The notes under the pieces are model-generated. The model saw only the letters and a list, made by a program, of their open reading frames with translations. It was not told where the DNA came from and did no database searches. A stretch of 64,000 bases of DNA from Phycisphaeraceae bacterium. Lineage in GTDB: Bacteria; Planctomycetota; Phycisphaerae; Phycisphaerales; UBA1924. Positions 48,945 through 63,080 of this stretch are shown piece after piece. How positions within the stretch are numbered: the stretch's first letter is position 1; each line of letters begins with the position of its first letter. The translations under genes were made by a program, and so were the position numbers. The stretch covers positions 36,949 through 100,948 of the forward strand of contig JAHBXG010000004.1 in assembly GCA_019636565.1 (NCBI GenBank). The letters run 5' to 3'.

Positions 48945-49445
48945 GGAAAAGTCTACGGGATGTGGACCATCGCCATTGCCGGAGAGGCTGTGACCTAGTA
49001 CACCTCGGCGTGGTACTTGAACGCGACAATGGCATCGATTACGCCGGTCGGGCCGAGCCGCGGGAGGTTGGGATCAAGTCTTACTTTCCAGCCCGCAGAA
49101 AAGAAGTTGGTGATCACTGGTCGTACCACAGGCGGCTCTCGGGACTGCCCGGCGGACTCAGGTCCACATCGCCGCTCGCCGATAGCGACGCGGGCCTGAC
49201 AGGACGCCTTGCACCAACCCCAAATAAGTGGTGCTGGTGAGGTTGCGCGACTCAAACGGCTTCCAGCCTGCAGTTGGCATGACGACCAACGAAGAGGGTT
49301 TCGGGCCGCGCGGTTCTCACACGGGAGGGAAACGCAAAGTCAAGCACCTGGCGGAAAACACGCAAATCGAGGTGAGGGGAGCGAAGCCCGTGCCCTGTCG
49401 CCTCCGCGATCGCACTGCCTCGCGCGTGGAATTCGAACCCTACGT

Positions 49446-49562
49446 AAAACACCTCCCCCGGTGGGCGAGGTGTTTCGTATTTCAAACGGGGTGACAGTAC
49501 ACCAATAGAACTTTTCTTGAAAAGCGCTCGGGTAACGGAGCTGGGACTTCGCGTCCGCTGGC
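49446..49562 (-). repeat. Junction module A: hairpin + 11-nt tRNA-Pro 3'-end copy + conserved arm
   Basis: The hairpin AAACACCTC/GAGGTGTTT lies at 49447..49475. The core cggggtgacag at 49487..49497 is identical to tRNA-Pro positions 63008..63018. The arm tacaccaatagaacttttcttg... follows. Positions 49487..49519 are identical over 33 nt to 55610..55642. Confidence 0.85.
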
Positions 49563-49617
49563 CCCAGACGGGCTTGCCAGGACACGATGACTCTTTCAAC
49601 TTGTACACTCCCCGCTC

Positions 49618-52447
49618 ATGCACCCAGCCGCCATTGGCCCATTCAACATCGAACGTGAACTCGGCCGTGGCGGCATGGGCGTGGTGTACCTCGCCACCGA
49701 CAACAAACTGGACCGGCAGATCGCGATCAAGGCCTTGTCCGCTGACTTCGCGGGCGATCCCGATCGCCTCGCACGCTTCCAGCACGAGGCCAAAGTACTC
49801 GCGTCGCTCAACCATCCGGGCATTGCCGCAATTTACGGGCTTGAGGAAGCGAACGGGCACCAGTATCTGATTCTGGAATATGTCGCGGGGGAATCACTCG
49901 CCGACTGGCTGGCCAAAGGACCGATGCCGATCGATGAGTCGCTGAACCTGGCGAGGCAGATCGCCACGGCGCTCGAGGTCGCACACGAAAAGGGCGTCAT
50001 CCACCGGGATCTCAAGCCCGGCAACGTCATGGTCACGCCCGACGGCGTGGTCAAGGTGCTGGATTTTGGTCTGGCGAGGACAGCCGACGGCAAGCCGTCG
50101 ACAACCACGGCGCCGGTTGCAACGGACTCGCCGACCGTCATTTCGCCCGCGCGTTTCGCACACAGTCCGACGATCCCCGGCGTCATCATGGGCACCGCCG
50201 GGTACATGTCCCCCGAGCAGGCCCGAGGCAAGCCAGTCGACAAGCGCTCCGACATTTTCTCGTTCGGCTGCGTGCTCTACGAGATGTTGACGGGCGCGCA
50301 GCCGTTCAGAGGCGAGACCGTCGCCGACGCCATCGGGGCCACCCTGCACAAGGAGTCGGACCTAAGCCTGCTTCCGCCCGGCACGCCCCGCCGCGTACGC
50401 GACCTCCTCACCAACTGCCTCGCCAAAGACCGCAAGGACCGTCTCCACGATATTGGCGACGCTCGGCTGGAACTCGAGCGCGCCATTGGCGGACAGGAGT
50501 GGCTCTCGGCCGCCGCGGCGCCGGGCGTGCGCAAGACCTCGCGATCTCTGGCGGTCGGCGCGGCGTGCGCTCTCACGCTCCTGGCCGGAGGGATCGGCTG
50601 GTTGCTGGCGAGCCAGTTCACGCCCCGACCGCCCTCCGCGCCCGTTGCTCCACCGCAGACTTTCTACGTCTCAACGAGTCTGCCCAGCAAACCGCCGTAT
50701 AGCGGGCTCGTCAGTACCTCCGGACGCGAAGTTCTTGGTGTACACAGCTTGGCCCGAATTGGAATTTGAGAGTGCCAAGCCCCAAGGCGTGCTGGTGGTG
50801 CGTCGGCTCGACCGCGATGAAACCACCGTGATCGAAGGCACAGAGGGAGCGAGGAACGCCGCACTGTCAGCAGACGGGCGCTGGGTCGCCTTTGCCGCCG
50901 CCAAAGACCGTGCCGGCACCAAGTTCGCCCTCAAGAAGGTCGCGCTCGAGAACGGGCGACCCTCGGGCAAACCACAAAGCGTTTGCGAACTCACCCAGGG
51001 TTCATGGTTCTCTTTGGGCTGGTCGTCGGATCGGGAGCTTGTGTTTGCGGCAAGTCTGAATACGACGATCTACACCGTTTCCGCCTCGGAAGGCGAGTCG
51101 CGGGTACTCCTTCGTGCGGATGGTGCCCAGGGTCTTGAGATTTGGCAAGACTTTCGCCCTCTGGTTGCGGGGCGTTCCATGTTGGCGACGGATGTTGTGC
51201 TTTCGGGCGAGAAGGTCAAGGTCAATACCGAGGTGATCGATCTCGCCTCGGGAAAGCGGACGGTGGTGCTCACCGACGCCGGATCGGCGCAACTTGTGAC
51301 TGTCTCGAAGGCAGCAGGCAAGGAGGTAGAGCATTTTCTCGTTGCGTCCAGAAGCGACCTCTCCGGACTGGTCGCGGTGCGGTTTGATCCCGGCACGCTG
51401 CGCACCCTCGGAGACCCCGTCACTGTGTGGAACGGCGGCCAGGTCAACAGGTTCGATCTCTCTCCAAGCGGCACGCTCGCGATGGCCGCGCAGGCGTCCG
51501 CCACCGTCGATCGACGCCTCGCCTGGATCGATGAGAAGGGTCAGCCTCAGCCGGTCACCGCGACGGCGCGTTCCTATTCAGGCATTTCGATATCACCGGA
51601 CGGCGAGCGCGTACTCGCCACGCAAGAAAGTACCAGCCCGGACGATCTGGGTACTCAAGTGTGGATACAAGATTTGAAACGCAAGACCACGACACGGCTC
51701 CCGGTCGAGGGCATGACGGACAGCATGATGTGGAGCAACGACGGGCGGCGGATCGCGTACAGCACCTTTACGAACGAAGAGTTTTCGATCTGGGAGCGAC
51801 CGGCAGTCCCTTCGGGCGGAGCCGCGAAGATGTTTGCGACCCCGATCGCTCAACAGCTGTTTGTGGCTCCCAGTGCGTGGTCACCCGATGGCAAGATCCT
51901 GGCGATCGTCCAGTCCGACATCAAGACCAACAAGAGTGATGTGCTGATGCTGGAGCAGGAACCGGACAGCACAGAGTGGAAAGCCACACCATACTTGAAC
52001 TCGCCGGCCGATGAACACGCGCTGCGGTTTTCGCCCGACGGCAAGTGGGTGGTGTTCTGCTCGGTTGAGTCCGGGCGGCACGAGTTGTACGCGCAGCGCT
52101 TCACCGGCGCAGGGTCTGGCGCGAAAGATGCCGCGAGCGGGCGCGTGCAGATCTCGACGAGCGGACATGATGGCGGCGTCTGGTGGAGCGCGGACGGCAA
52201 GGAGATACGCTTCATCGACGGCGACAAGCAGGTCATGGGTGTTGACGTGAAGACCGAACCGACATTCTCCGCGTCGCTGCCGAAAGTGCTGTACAGCATT
52301 AAAGACCTGAAGACGCGAAGCTTCTCGTGGTCGCCGGACGGGCGTCTGATGGTCATCTTGGAAGGAGAGAACGAGCGGGTGAACAAGATTGACTTGATTG
52401 TGAACTTCGAAGAAGAGATTCGGGCCAAAATGGGCGCTGTGAAGTAG
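49618..52447 (+). pseudogene. Ser/Thr kinase - TM - TolB/PD40 beta-propeller protein, reading frame broken near 50713
   Basis: ORF 49618..50769 carries intact kinase motifs (GRGGMGVVY, IAIKAL, HRDLKPGNVMV, DFG, SPEQ) and a TM helix. It then decays to a stop after ...PPYSGLVSTSGREV. In the +1 frame, ORF 50453..52447 becomes protein-like exactly there (VPPDAKFLVYTAW...). That frame continues with PD40 motifs (SADGRWVAF, SPDGERVLA, SPDGKILAI, SPDGKWVVF, SPDGRLMVI). Removing one base around 50713 gives GLVSPPDAKFLVY. Confidence 0.75.
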
Positions 52448-52517
52448 TCGCATTGAATCTGCAACTCGCATTCACGACGGCATCTTCCCAATGACATCAA
52501 ATTGGCAAACGCAACGC

Positions 52518-62854: not shown

Positions 62855-62962
62855 AAGTTCAAATCCTCGCACCAGTCGGGCTCAAAACGTGGGAATCCGA
62901 GCACTTAGGCGCGGGCGTTTGAACCGGCAAGACATTGCGTAAGTCTCGCTGCCCACAACGAG

Positions 62963-62993
62963 AAAGCCCTTCGATGCGTCATCGAAGGGCTTT
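62963..62993. terminator. Perfect 13-bp hairpin between the DUF442 gene and the tRNA-Pro 3' end
   Basis: AAAGCCCTTCGAT-GCGTC-ATCGAAGGGCTTT lies 14 nt beyond the tRNA-Pro 3' end (minus strand) and 109 nt after the plus-strand stop at 62854. There is no long T-run on either side, so terminator function is inferred. Confidence 0.55.
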
Positions 62994-63006
62994 ACTCTGA
63001 AACAAG

Positions 63007-63080
63007 TCGGGGTGACAGGATTTGAACCTGCGACCTTCTCGTCCCGAACGAGACGCGCTACCAAGCTGCGCTACACCCCG
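63007..63080 (-). tRNA. tRNA-Pro (anticodon CGG)
   Basis: The minus-strand sequence is CGGGGTGTAGCGCAGCTTGGTAGCGCGTCTCGTTCGGGACGAGAAGGTCGCAGGTTCAAATCCTGTCACCCCGA. It folds with acceptor CGGGGTG/CACCCCG, D-stem GCGC/GCGC and anticodon stem TCTCG/CGAGA with loop TTCGGGA (anticodon CGG, G37). The T-loop is TTCAAAT. Length is 74 nt with no encoded CCA. Confidence 0.92.

Follow-up and report, generated by a model that had tools for sequence, protein, structure and literature searches.

The window, a stretch of 64,000 nucleotides (nt) of contig JAHBXG010000004.1 from a Phycisphaeraceae bacterium, was found to carry an array of four gene cassettes ending at a tRNA-Pro(CGG) gene. The cassettes are delimited by copies of a short core, which is the 3' end of that tRNA gene. 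The 14-mer ARTCGGGGTGACAG has five occurrences in the 64 kb, all on the plus strand: one is the 3' end of tRNA-Pro(CGG), and the other four mark intergenic junctions. The 14-mer AATCGGGGTGACAG, allowing up to two mismatches, was confined to the same five junctions. The first-pass annotation of this DNA had described the last 11 nt of the tRNA gene at four further co-oriented sites. Both positions and spacings were reproduced: the 11-mer CGGGGTGACAG occurred on the plus strand exactly at 49487, 55610 and 63008 and with one mismatch at 52560 and 57920. Taken alone, the 11-mer was weak evidence (5 matches against 1.65 expected, a number reached in 2 of 100 shuffles). The repeat surrounding it was far beyond chance, because a 27-mer of the right arm gave 3 matches against 0 expected, a repeat search returned a 78-nt family of 4 copies at spacings of 3073, 3050 and 2310, and the 14-mer was restricted to the five junctions.

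Right of each non-tRNA core a conserved arm of 80-105 nt was observed, and a terminator hairpin preceded each of the five cores, the tRNA core included (Table 1). No copy was present in the other 50 kb of the window. The gene content of the modules agreed with the earlier description when the ten cargo open reading frames (ORFs) were scanned against Pfam, and no recombinase or transfer domain was detected in them. The GC content of the modules (0.59-0.68) was no different from that of the flanks, which encode an extracytoplasmic function (ECF) sigma factor, Ser/Thr kinases and an N_methyl protein; ECF sigma factor, Ser/Thr kinase and N_methyl genes are typical of Planctomycetota.

Table 1. Features of the cassette array in the window (positions are those of the window; L numbers denote loci of other genomes; PDO, persulfide dioxygenase)
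Feature	Position	Strand	Basis
Core copy A, AAACGGGGTGACAG, distal array edge	49484..49497	+	Motif match
Core copy B, AATCGGGTTGACAG	52557..52570	+	Motif match
Core copy C, AATCGGGGTGACAG	55607..55620	+	Motif match; left breakpoint of L005 homology
Core copy D, AGTCGGGGTAACAG	57917..57930	+	Motif match; right breakpoint of L005 homology, real tRNA next there
Core at real tRNA, AGTCGGGGTGACAG	63005..63018	+	Motif match
tRNA-Pro(CGG), attB-like anchor, its last 12 nt being the core	63006..63080	-	ARAGORN; Rfam 67 bits; 74/74 identical to L005 tRNA
Cassette 1: Ser/Thr kinase + PD40 propeller, split over two frames (49618-50769, 50453-52447)	49484..52556		Pfam scan
Cassette 2: two DUF1254/DUF1214 genes, minus strand (52757-54154, 54173-55417)	52557..55606		Pfam scan
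Cassette 3: SulP/STAS transporter (55961-57763)	55607..57916		Pfam scan; L005 homology
Cassette 4: metallo-beta-lactamase-rhodanese (putative PDO), TauE, rhodanese/YgaP, YgaP-like, 391-aa BLH-phosphatase-like	57917..63004		Pfam scan
Right (P'-like) arm A, type 1, degenerate past about +45	49483..49562	+	nhmmer 60.8 bits
Right arm B, type 1; micro-ORF 52590-52661 (TTG ... TGA)	52555..52661	+	nhmmer 74.9 bits
Right arm C, type 1; micro-ORF 55640-55702 (TTG ... TGA)	55606..55702	+	nhmmer 83 bits
Right arm D, D-like type (GACAGGACACGGTTTGAAC...CGTGAAATCGTGA); frame 57950-58009, TGA 58007-58009	57916..58009	+	nhmmer 32.7 bits; same type in L020, L030, L039, L056
Hairpin before core A	49447..49475		Sequence reading; terminator scan
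Hairpin class H3, AACGCCCG...CGGGCGTT, right end of cassette 1	52519..52548		Same class beside real tRNA-Pro in L002, L023, L048; after kinase gene in L001
Class H1 left (P-like) arm: AGTTCAAATCC, ~55 nt, GTTTGAACC, hairpin 55564-55595, 11-nt linker	55450..55606		Homologous arms in L008, L036, L064
Hairpin class H2, GATGACCTCGGCACTTGCCGAGGCCATC, right end of SulP cassette	57877..57908		14-bp stem; conserved in L005 beside its tRNA
Class H1 left arm beside real tRNA; hairpin 62963-62993	62855..63004		Repeat search, sequence reading

The arm was searched in a species-representative genome collection, giving 66 loci, that is, the window and 65 others (L001-L065). An exact 20-mer of the arm, GACAGTACACCAATAGAACT, was found at 65 loci in about 53 genomes, nearly all labelled Phycisphaerae, Phycisphaerales or Tepidisphaerales, and it stood in every case in the context (A/G)TCGGGGTGACAGTACACCAATAGAACTTTTCTTGGAGGGCGTTAGGGTnTGGGAGCC...TTTGCTG. 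A profile of the arm recovered 88 copies from the window and the 65 loci, in a single orientation at each locus and in arrays of 2-4 copies at 12 of them. Past the last copy, on the opposite strand, a tRNA-Pro gene was located in 25 of the 66 loci, which is the geometry of the window; the anticodon was CGG in 15, GGG in 8 and TGG in 2. The sole other tRNA-Pro lay at the far end of L016, facing the opposite way and not abutting a copy. In the other 41 loci no tRNA-Pro was seen past the last copy, and 21 of these extend by less than 2.2 kb in that direction. The arm on the high-coordinate side of copies A-D, noted earlier, was confirmed as a repeat, yet it is not private to this genome but class-wide. 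A generic repeat of the kind represented by repetitive extragenic palindromes or miniature inverted-repeat transposable elements (REP/MITE) fails as an alternative, as the copies are few (1-4 per genome), clustered, always co-oriented and tRNA-Pro-linked in 25 loci with one fixed geometry. The other outcome that would have spoken against integration, an identical order of modules in relatives, was not observed either, since the cargo beside their tRNA genes differs.

Measured from one copy to the next copy or to the tRNA, 47 complete cassettes had a median length of about 1.4 kb, the shortest being 97 nt and the longest 6 kb. Every cassette has a 12-14-nt core at both ends and carries 1-5 cargo genes, which lie on both strands. 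The 65 non-window cassette ORFs matched 68 Pfam families, including beta-lactamase, kinase-propeller, UDG, SnoaL, Cys/Met PLP enzyme, CobW, SDR, SulP, CNNM, FGE-sulfatase, P-type ATPase and DJ-1; no recombinase was among the 25 families listed for these ORFs. For 145 ORFs beside the copies, the 25 listed families, each with at least 2 members, likewise included no integrase, resolvase or transposase; a single integrase would be missed by this list. Ten more right-flank ORFs encoded a molybdopterin oxidoreductase, a heavy-metal ATPase, an AbiEii-like ATPase, GmrSD or a beta-lactamase, or gave no hit. In L062, a TnpB-like ORF with a Cas12f1-like_TNB domain was noticed on the minus strand (1079-3601) directly left of the arm.

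The boundaries of one cassette were resolved by comparison of the window with L005. The SulP cassette, from core C to core D (55606-57932), was 90.6% identical between the two (blastn). At the residue level nothing similar was found left of AATCGGGGT; the arm, the SulP gene and the H2 hairpin then followed without interruption, and the similarity ended abruptly at GTCGGGGTRACAGGA. In L005 an intact tRNA-Pro(CGG) stands directly after the second core. The window continues beyond core D with the D arm, five genes, the H1 hairpin and another core before the tRNA is reached, and therefore the difference on the tRNA side is a clean 5,088-bp cassette bounded by the core. Left of the SulP cassette, L005 has a decayed integrase and the window has the DUF1254 cassette. 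The SulP proteins were 93.7% identical, compared with 34% for the N_methyl proteins encoded past the tRNA, which argues for a recent exchange of the SulP cassette, although the N_methyl genes may be paralogues. Across L002, L005, L021, L023, L029, L035, L043 and L047, the N_methyl gene past tRNA-Pro(CGG) was 28-34% identical to that of the window, of which it is possibly a paralogue.

Relatives of two other cassettes were recorded. Cassette 1 was 72-78% identical by blastn to sequences in L033 (beside tRNA-Pro(GGG)), L035 (beside tRNA-Pro(CGG)) and L046. The protein identity of the propeller ORF was 47% to L033, 25-26% to L035 and L046 and 21% to L001; at 25-26% identity the L035 and L046 kinase-propeller cassettes are considered related, not the same. 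L001 combines a related kinase-propeller gene and the same H3 hairpin with a different cassette following. In the window the two kinase-propeller frames overlap at 50453-50769, and the counterparts in L033, L035 and L046 are single ORFs of 927-929 aa; the split is due to either a frameshift or a sequencing error. The metallo-beta-lactamase-rhodanese gene of cassette 4, a putative PDO-rhodanese, was 91% identical to its counterpart in L027, and a 191-nt stretch was 87% identical to L063. Its true start is likely the ATG near 58205 (MFLRMVYDD), and the extension of the ORF to a start at 58010 is probably spurious. Upstream of this gene a leader of about 100 nt (58101-58204) was noted, which is about 90% conserved with L027 and L063 despite their differing arms and has no Rfam match; it may regulate the sulfur operon.

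Three types of right arm were distinguished: type 1 (copies A, B and C of the window), type 2 (...TTTTTGTGGAGGGAATCCGC...GCCGTGAAACCGTGAAA) and the D-like type, whose start GACAGGACACGGTTTGAAC is closer to the GACAGGATTTGAAC of the tRNA. Up to about +23 from the core, conservation of the arm is at the nucleotide level and shows no codon pattern. Between +24 and about +72 the arm has the evolutionary pattern of coding sequence in one plus-strand frame, with positional entropy falling from codon position 3 through position 1 to position 2. The synonymous fraction over all arm copies was 0.39, compared with 0.08-0.26 in the other frames, and among type-1 arms 58% of the single-nucleotide differences were synonymous, compared with 14-38% in the other five frames; the differences between types 1 and 2 include AGG to CGC (Arg to Arg). 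The codon at +24 was TTG, GTG or CTG in 75 of 87 copies, and stops clustered 27 and 31 codons past the core. This pattern defines a codon-constrained micro-ORF of 19-23 codons (MEGVRVWEPGIRRLLSAKAV...). No conserved ribosome-binding site and no homologue among larger proteins were found for it. The arm showed no conserved fold on either strand (alifold energies of -2.8 and -3.3 kcal/mol, single-sequence z-scores of +0.6 to +0.7), and an Rfam search of the window from 48 to 64 kb at E<=1 returned only the tRNA, leaving arms A-D without a match. The arms contain T-loop-like GTTCAAA/TTTGAAC motifs, which resemble the sequence past the core in the real tRNA and are plausible candidates for integrase binding sites.

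Several assignments of the arm and its peptide were tried and rejected. A word-indexed search for the peptide as part of a larger protein returned 37 short spurious ORFs, and nearly all of the 673 hits of an exhaustive profile search were ORFs of 40-230 aa ending in the arm. The sole long profile hit, P0343, was dismissed as an unrelated repeat protein with the GDGTPIEYFAAGVTVW motif. It has 1061 aa and repeats GDGTPIEYFAAGVTVW four times, matching the arm peptide GDSTPIELFLEGVRVW at 11 of 16 residues with a profile E of 6e-9; the likeness may be a coincidence or a clue to the origin of the arm. No similarity to 120 integrases was found for the peptide as an integrase terminus, and sigma-70, ECF, sigma-54 and Bacteroidetes-type promoters did not fit the arm, either by eye or by scan. 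Two unusual arms were encountered: L044 (oriented 5555-5652) has an 'empty' cassette, the next core following 97 nt after a type-2 arm, and L051 (6975) has a fused arm of types 1 and 2.

On the other side of the core, copy C and the real tRNA were confirmed to have near-identical left flanks (93% over 40 nt), and the imperfect, T-loop-like inverted repeat AGTTCAAATCC...GTTTGAACC was recovered at 55456/55515 and 62856/62915. The heptamer GAAGTAG, taken earlier as a sign of tight cassette boundaries, was present at its three places, but there was no evidence of it being anything other than a piece of the left arm. Between copy C and the real tRNA the hairpin stem shows a compensatory exchange (CGACG/CGTCG versus CGATG/CATCG). 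The 52-nt segment preceding the core reached a folding energy of -20 kcal/mol or lower in 43 of 87 copies, compared with 51 of 400 random control segments, and the flanks of real tRNA genes folded even more strongly (median -24.5 kcal/mol). Hairpin classes H1-H4 were common to internal junctions and real tRNA-Pro flanks. Since T-rich tracts flank the hairpins on both sides, these look like tRNA-type bidirectional terminators that are carried at the right end of each cassette and would serve the tRNA too. Further observations were made close to the cores. In L007 and L020 the direct repeats CCGTGAAA(N)CGTGAAA lie directly left of the core. At 57845-57868, 75 nt left of core D, CCAGAGTGACAGGACGCAGTTGAAC is a degenerate second core joined to the beginning of a D-like arm, and L005 conserves it as well. 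At the distal array edge, just left of the core A hairpin, CGCGTGGAATTCGAACCCTACG (49415-49445) resembles the complement of a T-arm from another tRNA.

Recombinases were searched with a hidden Markov model (HMM) built from 120 retrieved integrases, which detects the XerD and lambda Int controls. XerD and lambda Int themselves, used as query sequences, gave no match and were weakly sensitive as seeds. Applied to ORFs of at least 70-80 aa from the window and the 65 other loci, the HMM reported only L017, besides the known integrase of L067, which had been added as a control. The L017 hit is a tyrosine recombinase of 544 aa (HQLRHNAAT...LGHASATITDAIYAE; Pfam Phage_integrase) that is intact, begins 117 nt to the left of a core and arm and is oriented away from them. 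At the same place L005 retains a 60-residue remnant of the N-terminus of the same integrase. At E<=1e-10 this family of 445-560-aa proteins comprises over 1,700 members, and the named ones are mostly from Phycisphaerae. Homologues start 116 nt after tRNA-Pro(CGG) in two chromosomal cases (L075/L076 and L080) and in one IMG/VR contig (L083/L085), and the 116-nt spacer (CCGTAAGGCTTTCTGAAACC...) can be recognised left of the L005 core, with a looser likeness at L017. Downstream of the integrases linked to tRNA-Pro(CGG) lie genes for a Prim-Pol or NrS1-like primase, a ParB-methylase, HARE-HTH, a GpA-type terminase-like protein, a portal and a capsid, a set that identifies the context as a prophage. 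Other members of the family follow tRNA-Gly, tRNA-Asn or tRNA-Pro(TGG). A temperate-phage integrase using exactly this core is common in the class. The search for a recombinase elsewhere that uses the core, suggested by the first-pass annotation, has thus produced a candidate trans-acting tyrosine integrase family.

Around these integrases some further features were noted. A palindrome, GCGCGGTGTGACACCGCGC, lies just upstream of the integrase start in L075, L076, L078, L080, L082 and L005, whatever the tRNA target, and resembles the GGTG...CACC dyad across the core/arm boundary (GGTGACAGTACACC). The L067 integrase, encoded 9.5 kb from an arm, belongs to another family whose homologues (L068-L074) have no arms nearby, and it was dropped as the primary candidate. 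L070 and L071, two copies of one L067-type homologue, lie 4 kb from tRNA-Pro(TGG), and in L068/L069 (11812-19474) a defence island stands beside the L067-type integrase, comprising a UvrD helicase with an OLD-TOPRIM ATPase, DUF6119 and a BubE/ThiF/Multi_ubiq module.

The observations comprise the repeat anatomy, its class-wide distribution, the fixed tRNA-Pro geometry, the variable cargo, the lack of a linked recombinase and the core-bounded homology in two genomes. It was concluded that site-specific recombination, with an integrase supplied in trans, was probably responsible for stacking the four integrase-less cassettes at the tRNA-Pro(CGG) 3' end. The earlier proposal that the junctions arose from repeated integration into a tRNA 3' end was thereby supported. 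We modelled a cassette as a 12-14-nt core, a right arm of 80-105 nt, 1-5 cargo genes and a left arm ending in a GC-rich terminator about 10 nt before the next core. Circularisation of such a unit would create one complete attP-like site of about 250 bp, consisting of the left arm, the core and the right arm, and circular intermediates of this kind are presumed. Recombination of this site with the core of the tRNA, or with any internal core, would insert the cassette, restoring the 3' end of the tRNA and supplying it with a new terminator; the reverse reaction would excise it. The recombinase would reside outside the array and act in trans, and the candidates are the 445-560-aa tyrosine integrases of Phycisphaerae prophages that target tRNA-Pro(CGG). 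We infer that this family serves the arrays.

Several findings weigh against this proposal. Neither a circular junction nor an empty site was seen, and 20 loci lack a tRNA despite having at least 2.3 kb of sequence past the last copy. No integrase or integrase remnant was detected by the HMM in six-frame translations anywhere in the 64-kb window, in agreement with the earlier description of integrase-less modules, and the candidate integrase stands at a junction in only 2 of the 66 arrays (L017 and L005). The distal att site of the prophage was not recovered. No arm was found in 71 viral loci with the candidate integrase, an arm 19-mer had 0 hits in IMG/VR, and a metagenome scan for the phage spacer joined to the core returned integrated forms only and no free attP. 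The link between arm and cargo is not strict: the PDO cargo lies behind a D-like arm in the window and behind a type-1 arm in L027 and L063, so that arms and cargo can be re-assorted, which a simple exchange at the core does not predict.

The junctions may instead be scars, that is, attL sites left by decayed prophages or islands at tRNA-Pro, with surviving morons or flanking DNA as cargo; the cassettes would then have no mobility today, and the array would be a record of past lysogeny. A prophage family does use this tRNA, a decayed integrase lies beside the L005 junction, arms A and D have degenerated, a frameshift interrupts the kinase gene, and additive islands of this sort have been described for tycheposons (10.1101/2020.12.28.424599). 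However, independent decay is not expected to leave clean boundaries repeated as hairpin, about 10 nt and core, or to give two genomes with different flanks on either side one and the same SulP unit of 2.3 kb, ending at identical points. Furthermore, phage gene remnants were absent from the ten window ORFs and from the 25 families listed for the 65 non-window ORFs, and the arm is highly identical over about 53 species with constraint at the codon level. Scars were accordingly judged unlikely.

The same codon-level constraint, with its synonymous bias, NTG codon and clustered stops at +24 to +72, could be expected of a functional chromosomal element, such as a small RNA, or a promoter or leader accompanied by a gene for a small peptide, copied together with the tRNA terminator region; the likeness to the tRNA end would then be incidental or regulatory, for example antisense to tRNA-Pro. 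No Rfam match, no conserved fold and, in the scan, no sigma-70-like promoter were found, copy B faces a convergent gene end and leads nothing, and the fixed tRNA-Pro geometry and the core-bounded homology would stay unexplained. We regard this origin as quite improbable; a micro-ORF can, moreover, coexist with recombination at the core. Even harder to sustain is a tandem segmental duplication of tRNA-Pro and its flank, in which the extra tRNA genes decayed to pseudo-tRNAs. D-like arms do retain GACAGGA and TTTGAAC as in the T-arm of the tRNA, and the arm is close in length to the rest of the tRNA. Nevertheless, arms A-C share about 90% identity over 33 nt and are unlike the tRNA past the core, neither ARAGORN nor Rfam detects a tRNA in the arms, the modules between the copies are mutually unrelated and the arm has a class-wide conservation of its own. 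Duplication was therefore disfavoured as scarcely credible.

Returning to recombination in trans, a wider proposal can be made tentatively, and we consider it possible but rather doubtful. The arrays may form a class-wide, integron-like capture platform at tRNA-Pro, in which cassettes with an att site of about 250 bp, a translated micro-ORF and a terminator serving the tRNA would be inserted, excised and exchanged between species by a prophage-type integrase acting in trans. The cassettes would then be distinct integrase-less elements parasitising temperate phages, not debris. To our knowledge, almost no mobile-element biology has been described for Planctomycetota. If active, the cassettes would provide a route for the movement of accessory genes between Phycisphaerae species, and the cargo overall includes transporters, sulfur oxidation genes, metal pumps, beta-lactamases, defence genes and DNA-repair enzymes. 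They would also represent a second, independently evolved cassette-array architecture beside integrons, one that combines an att site derived from a tRNA and conserved in sequence with an integrase borrowed from a phage. The junction could be used as a probe for the metagenomic cassette pool and in recombination assays, because it is short and highly conserved (the 20-mer being found in about 53 species).

In integrons, the attC sites are imperfect inverted repeats that fold as single-stranded hairpins and are conserved in structure rather than in sequence. The intI gene and attI lie beside the first cassette, and the cassettes are mostly promoterless single ORFs in one orientation. The present arrays resemble integrons, and clusters of attC sites lacking an integron integrase (CALIN), in having co-oriented sites, small and mostly one-gene cassettes, diverse accessory cargo and no recombinase inside; the integrases of L017 and L005 point away from the first site, just as intI diverges from attI. 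In contrast, the arms are non-palindromic, have no fold, are conserved in sequence and derive from a tRNA, and thus are not attC-like. The window has no tyrosine recombinase and only 2 of the 66 arrays have a divergent integrase, which is of the prophage type. The cargo of 1-5 genes lies on both strands, often with its own leader and terminator, and the anchor is a tRNA gene. The array is integron-like in outline and departs from integrons on each point examined. The site itself has the layout of the att sites of tRNA-integrating prophages, in which a core identical to the tRNA 3' end stands between P and P' arms of about 100-150 nt, the junction here totalling about 250 bp.

Cis-mobilizable elements (CIMEs) related to the integrative and conjugative (ICE) or integrative and mobilizable (IME) elements of Streptococcus are bounded by att sites, have lost or never had integrase and transfer genes, and accrete in tandem at tRNA or other att sites with help from the integrase of a resident element (PMC5704250). 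The window units are similarly bounded by direct repeats of the 3' end of the target gene and, by Pfam and the integrase HMMs, contain no integrase, excisionase or transfer genes. They differ in being far smaller (median 1.4 kb, often one gene) with up to four stacked, in a junction arm of about 100 nt conserved across a class, and in a likely helper that is a prophage rather than a conjugative element. Because no decayed mobility genes were seen, the cassettes are unlike decayed ICEs or IMEs.

Islands of Prochlorococcus built by tycheposons are additive and lie beside particular tRNA genes, tRNA-Pro among them; their insertions are set apart by partial tRNA copies, the cargo is niche-adaptive and newcomers displace older insertions away from the tRNA (10.1101/2020.12.28.424599). 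Tycheposons carry their own tyrosine recombinase and a replication module, and stretches without an integrase are read as remnants, whereas the 47 Phycisphaerae units lack both and their junctions are fully two-armed. In the window cassettes no tycheposon-type recombinase and no replication or packaging module was found with Pfam and the integrase HMMs. In Dehalococcoides, many islands share one small-RNA gene, ssrA, with repeats of its 3' end; they date back as far as the lineage itself, their cargo is decoupled in phylogeny from the integration module, and only 16 of 31 hold that module (PMC3146451). Those islands are about 12 kb long, target a tmRNA, have an adjacent integration module in about half of the cases and have no described micro-ORF arm, and the Phycisphaerae cassettes differ from them in these respects. 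A limited search of the open-access literature returned no description of such tRNA-Pro arrays in Phycisphaerae. The combination of very small self-contained cassettes, a class-wide two-armed junction derived from a tRNA, a micro-ORF arm and no linked recombinase is what distinguishes these arrays.

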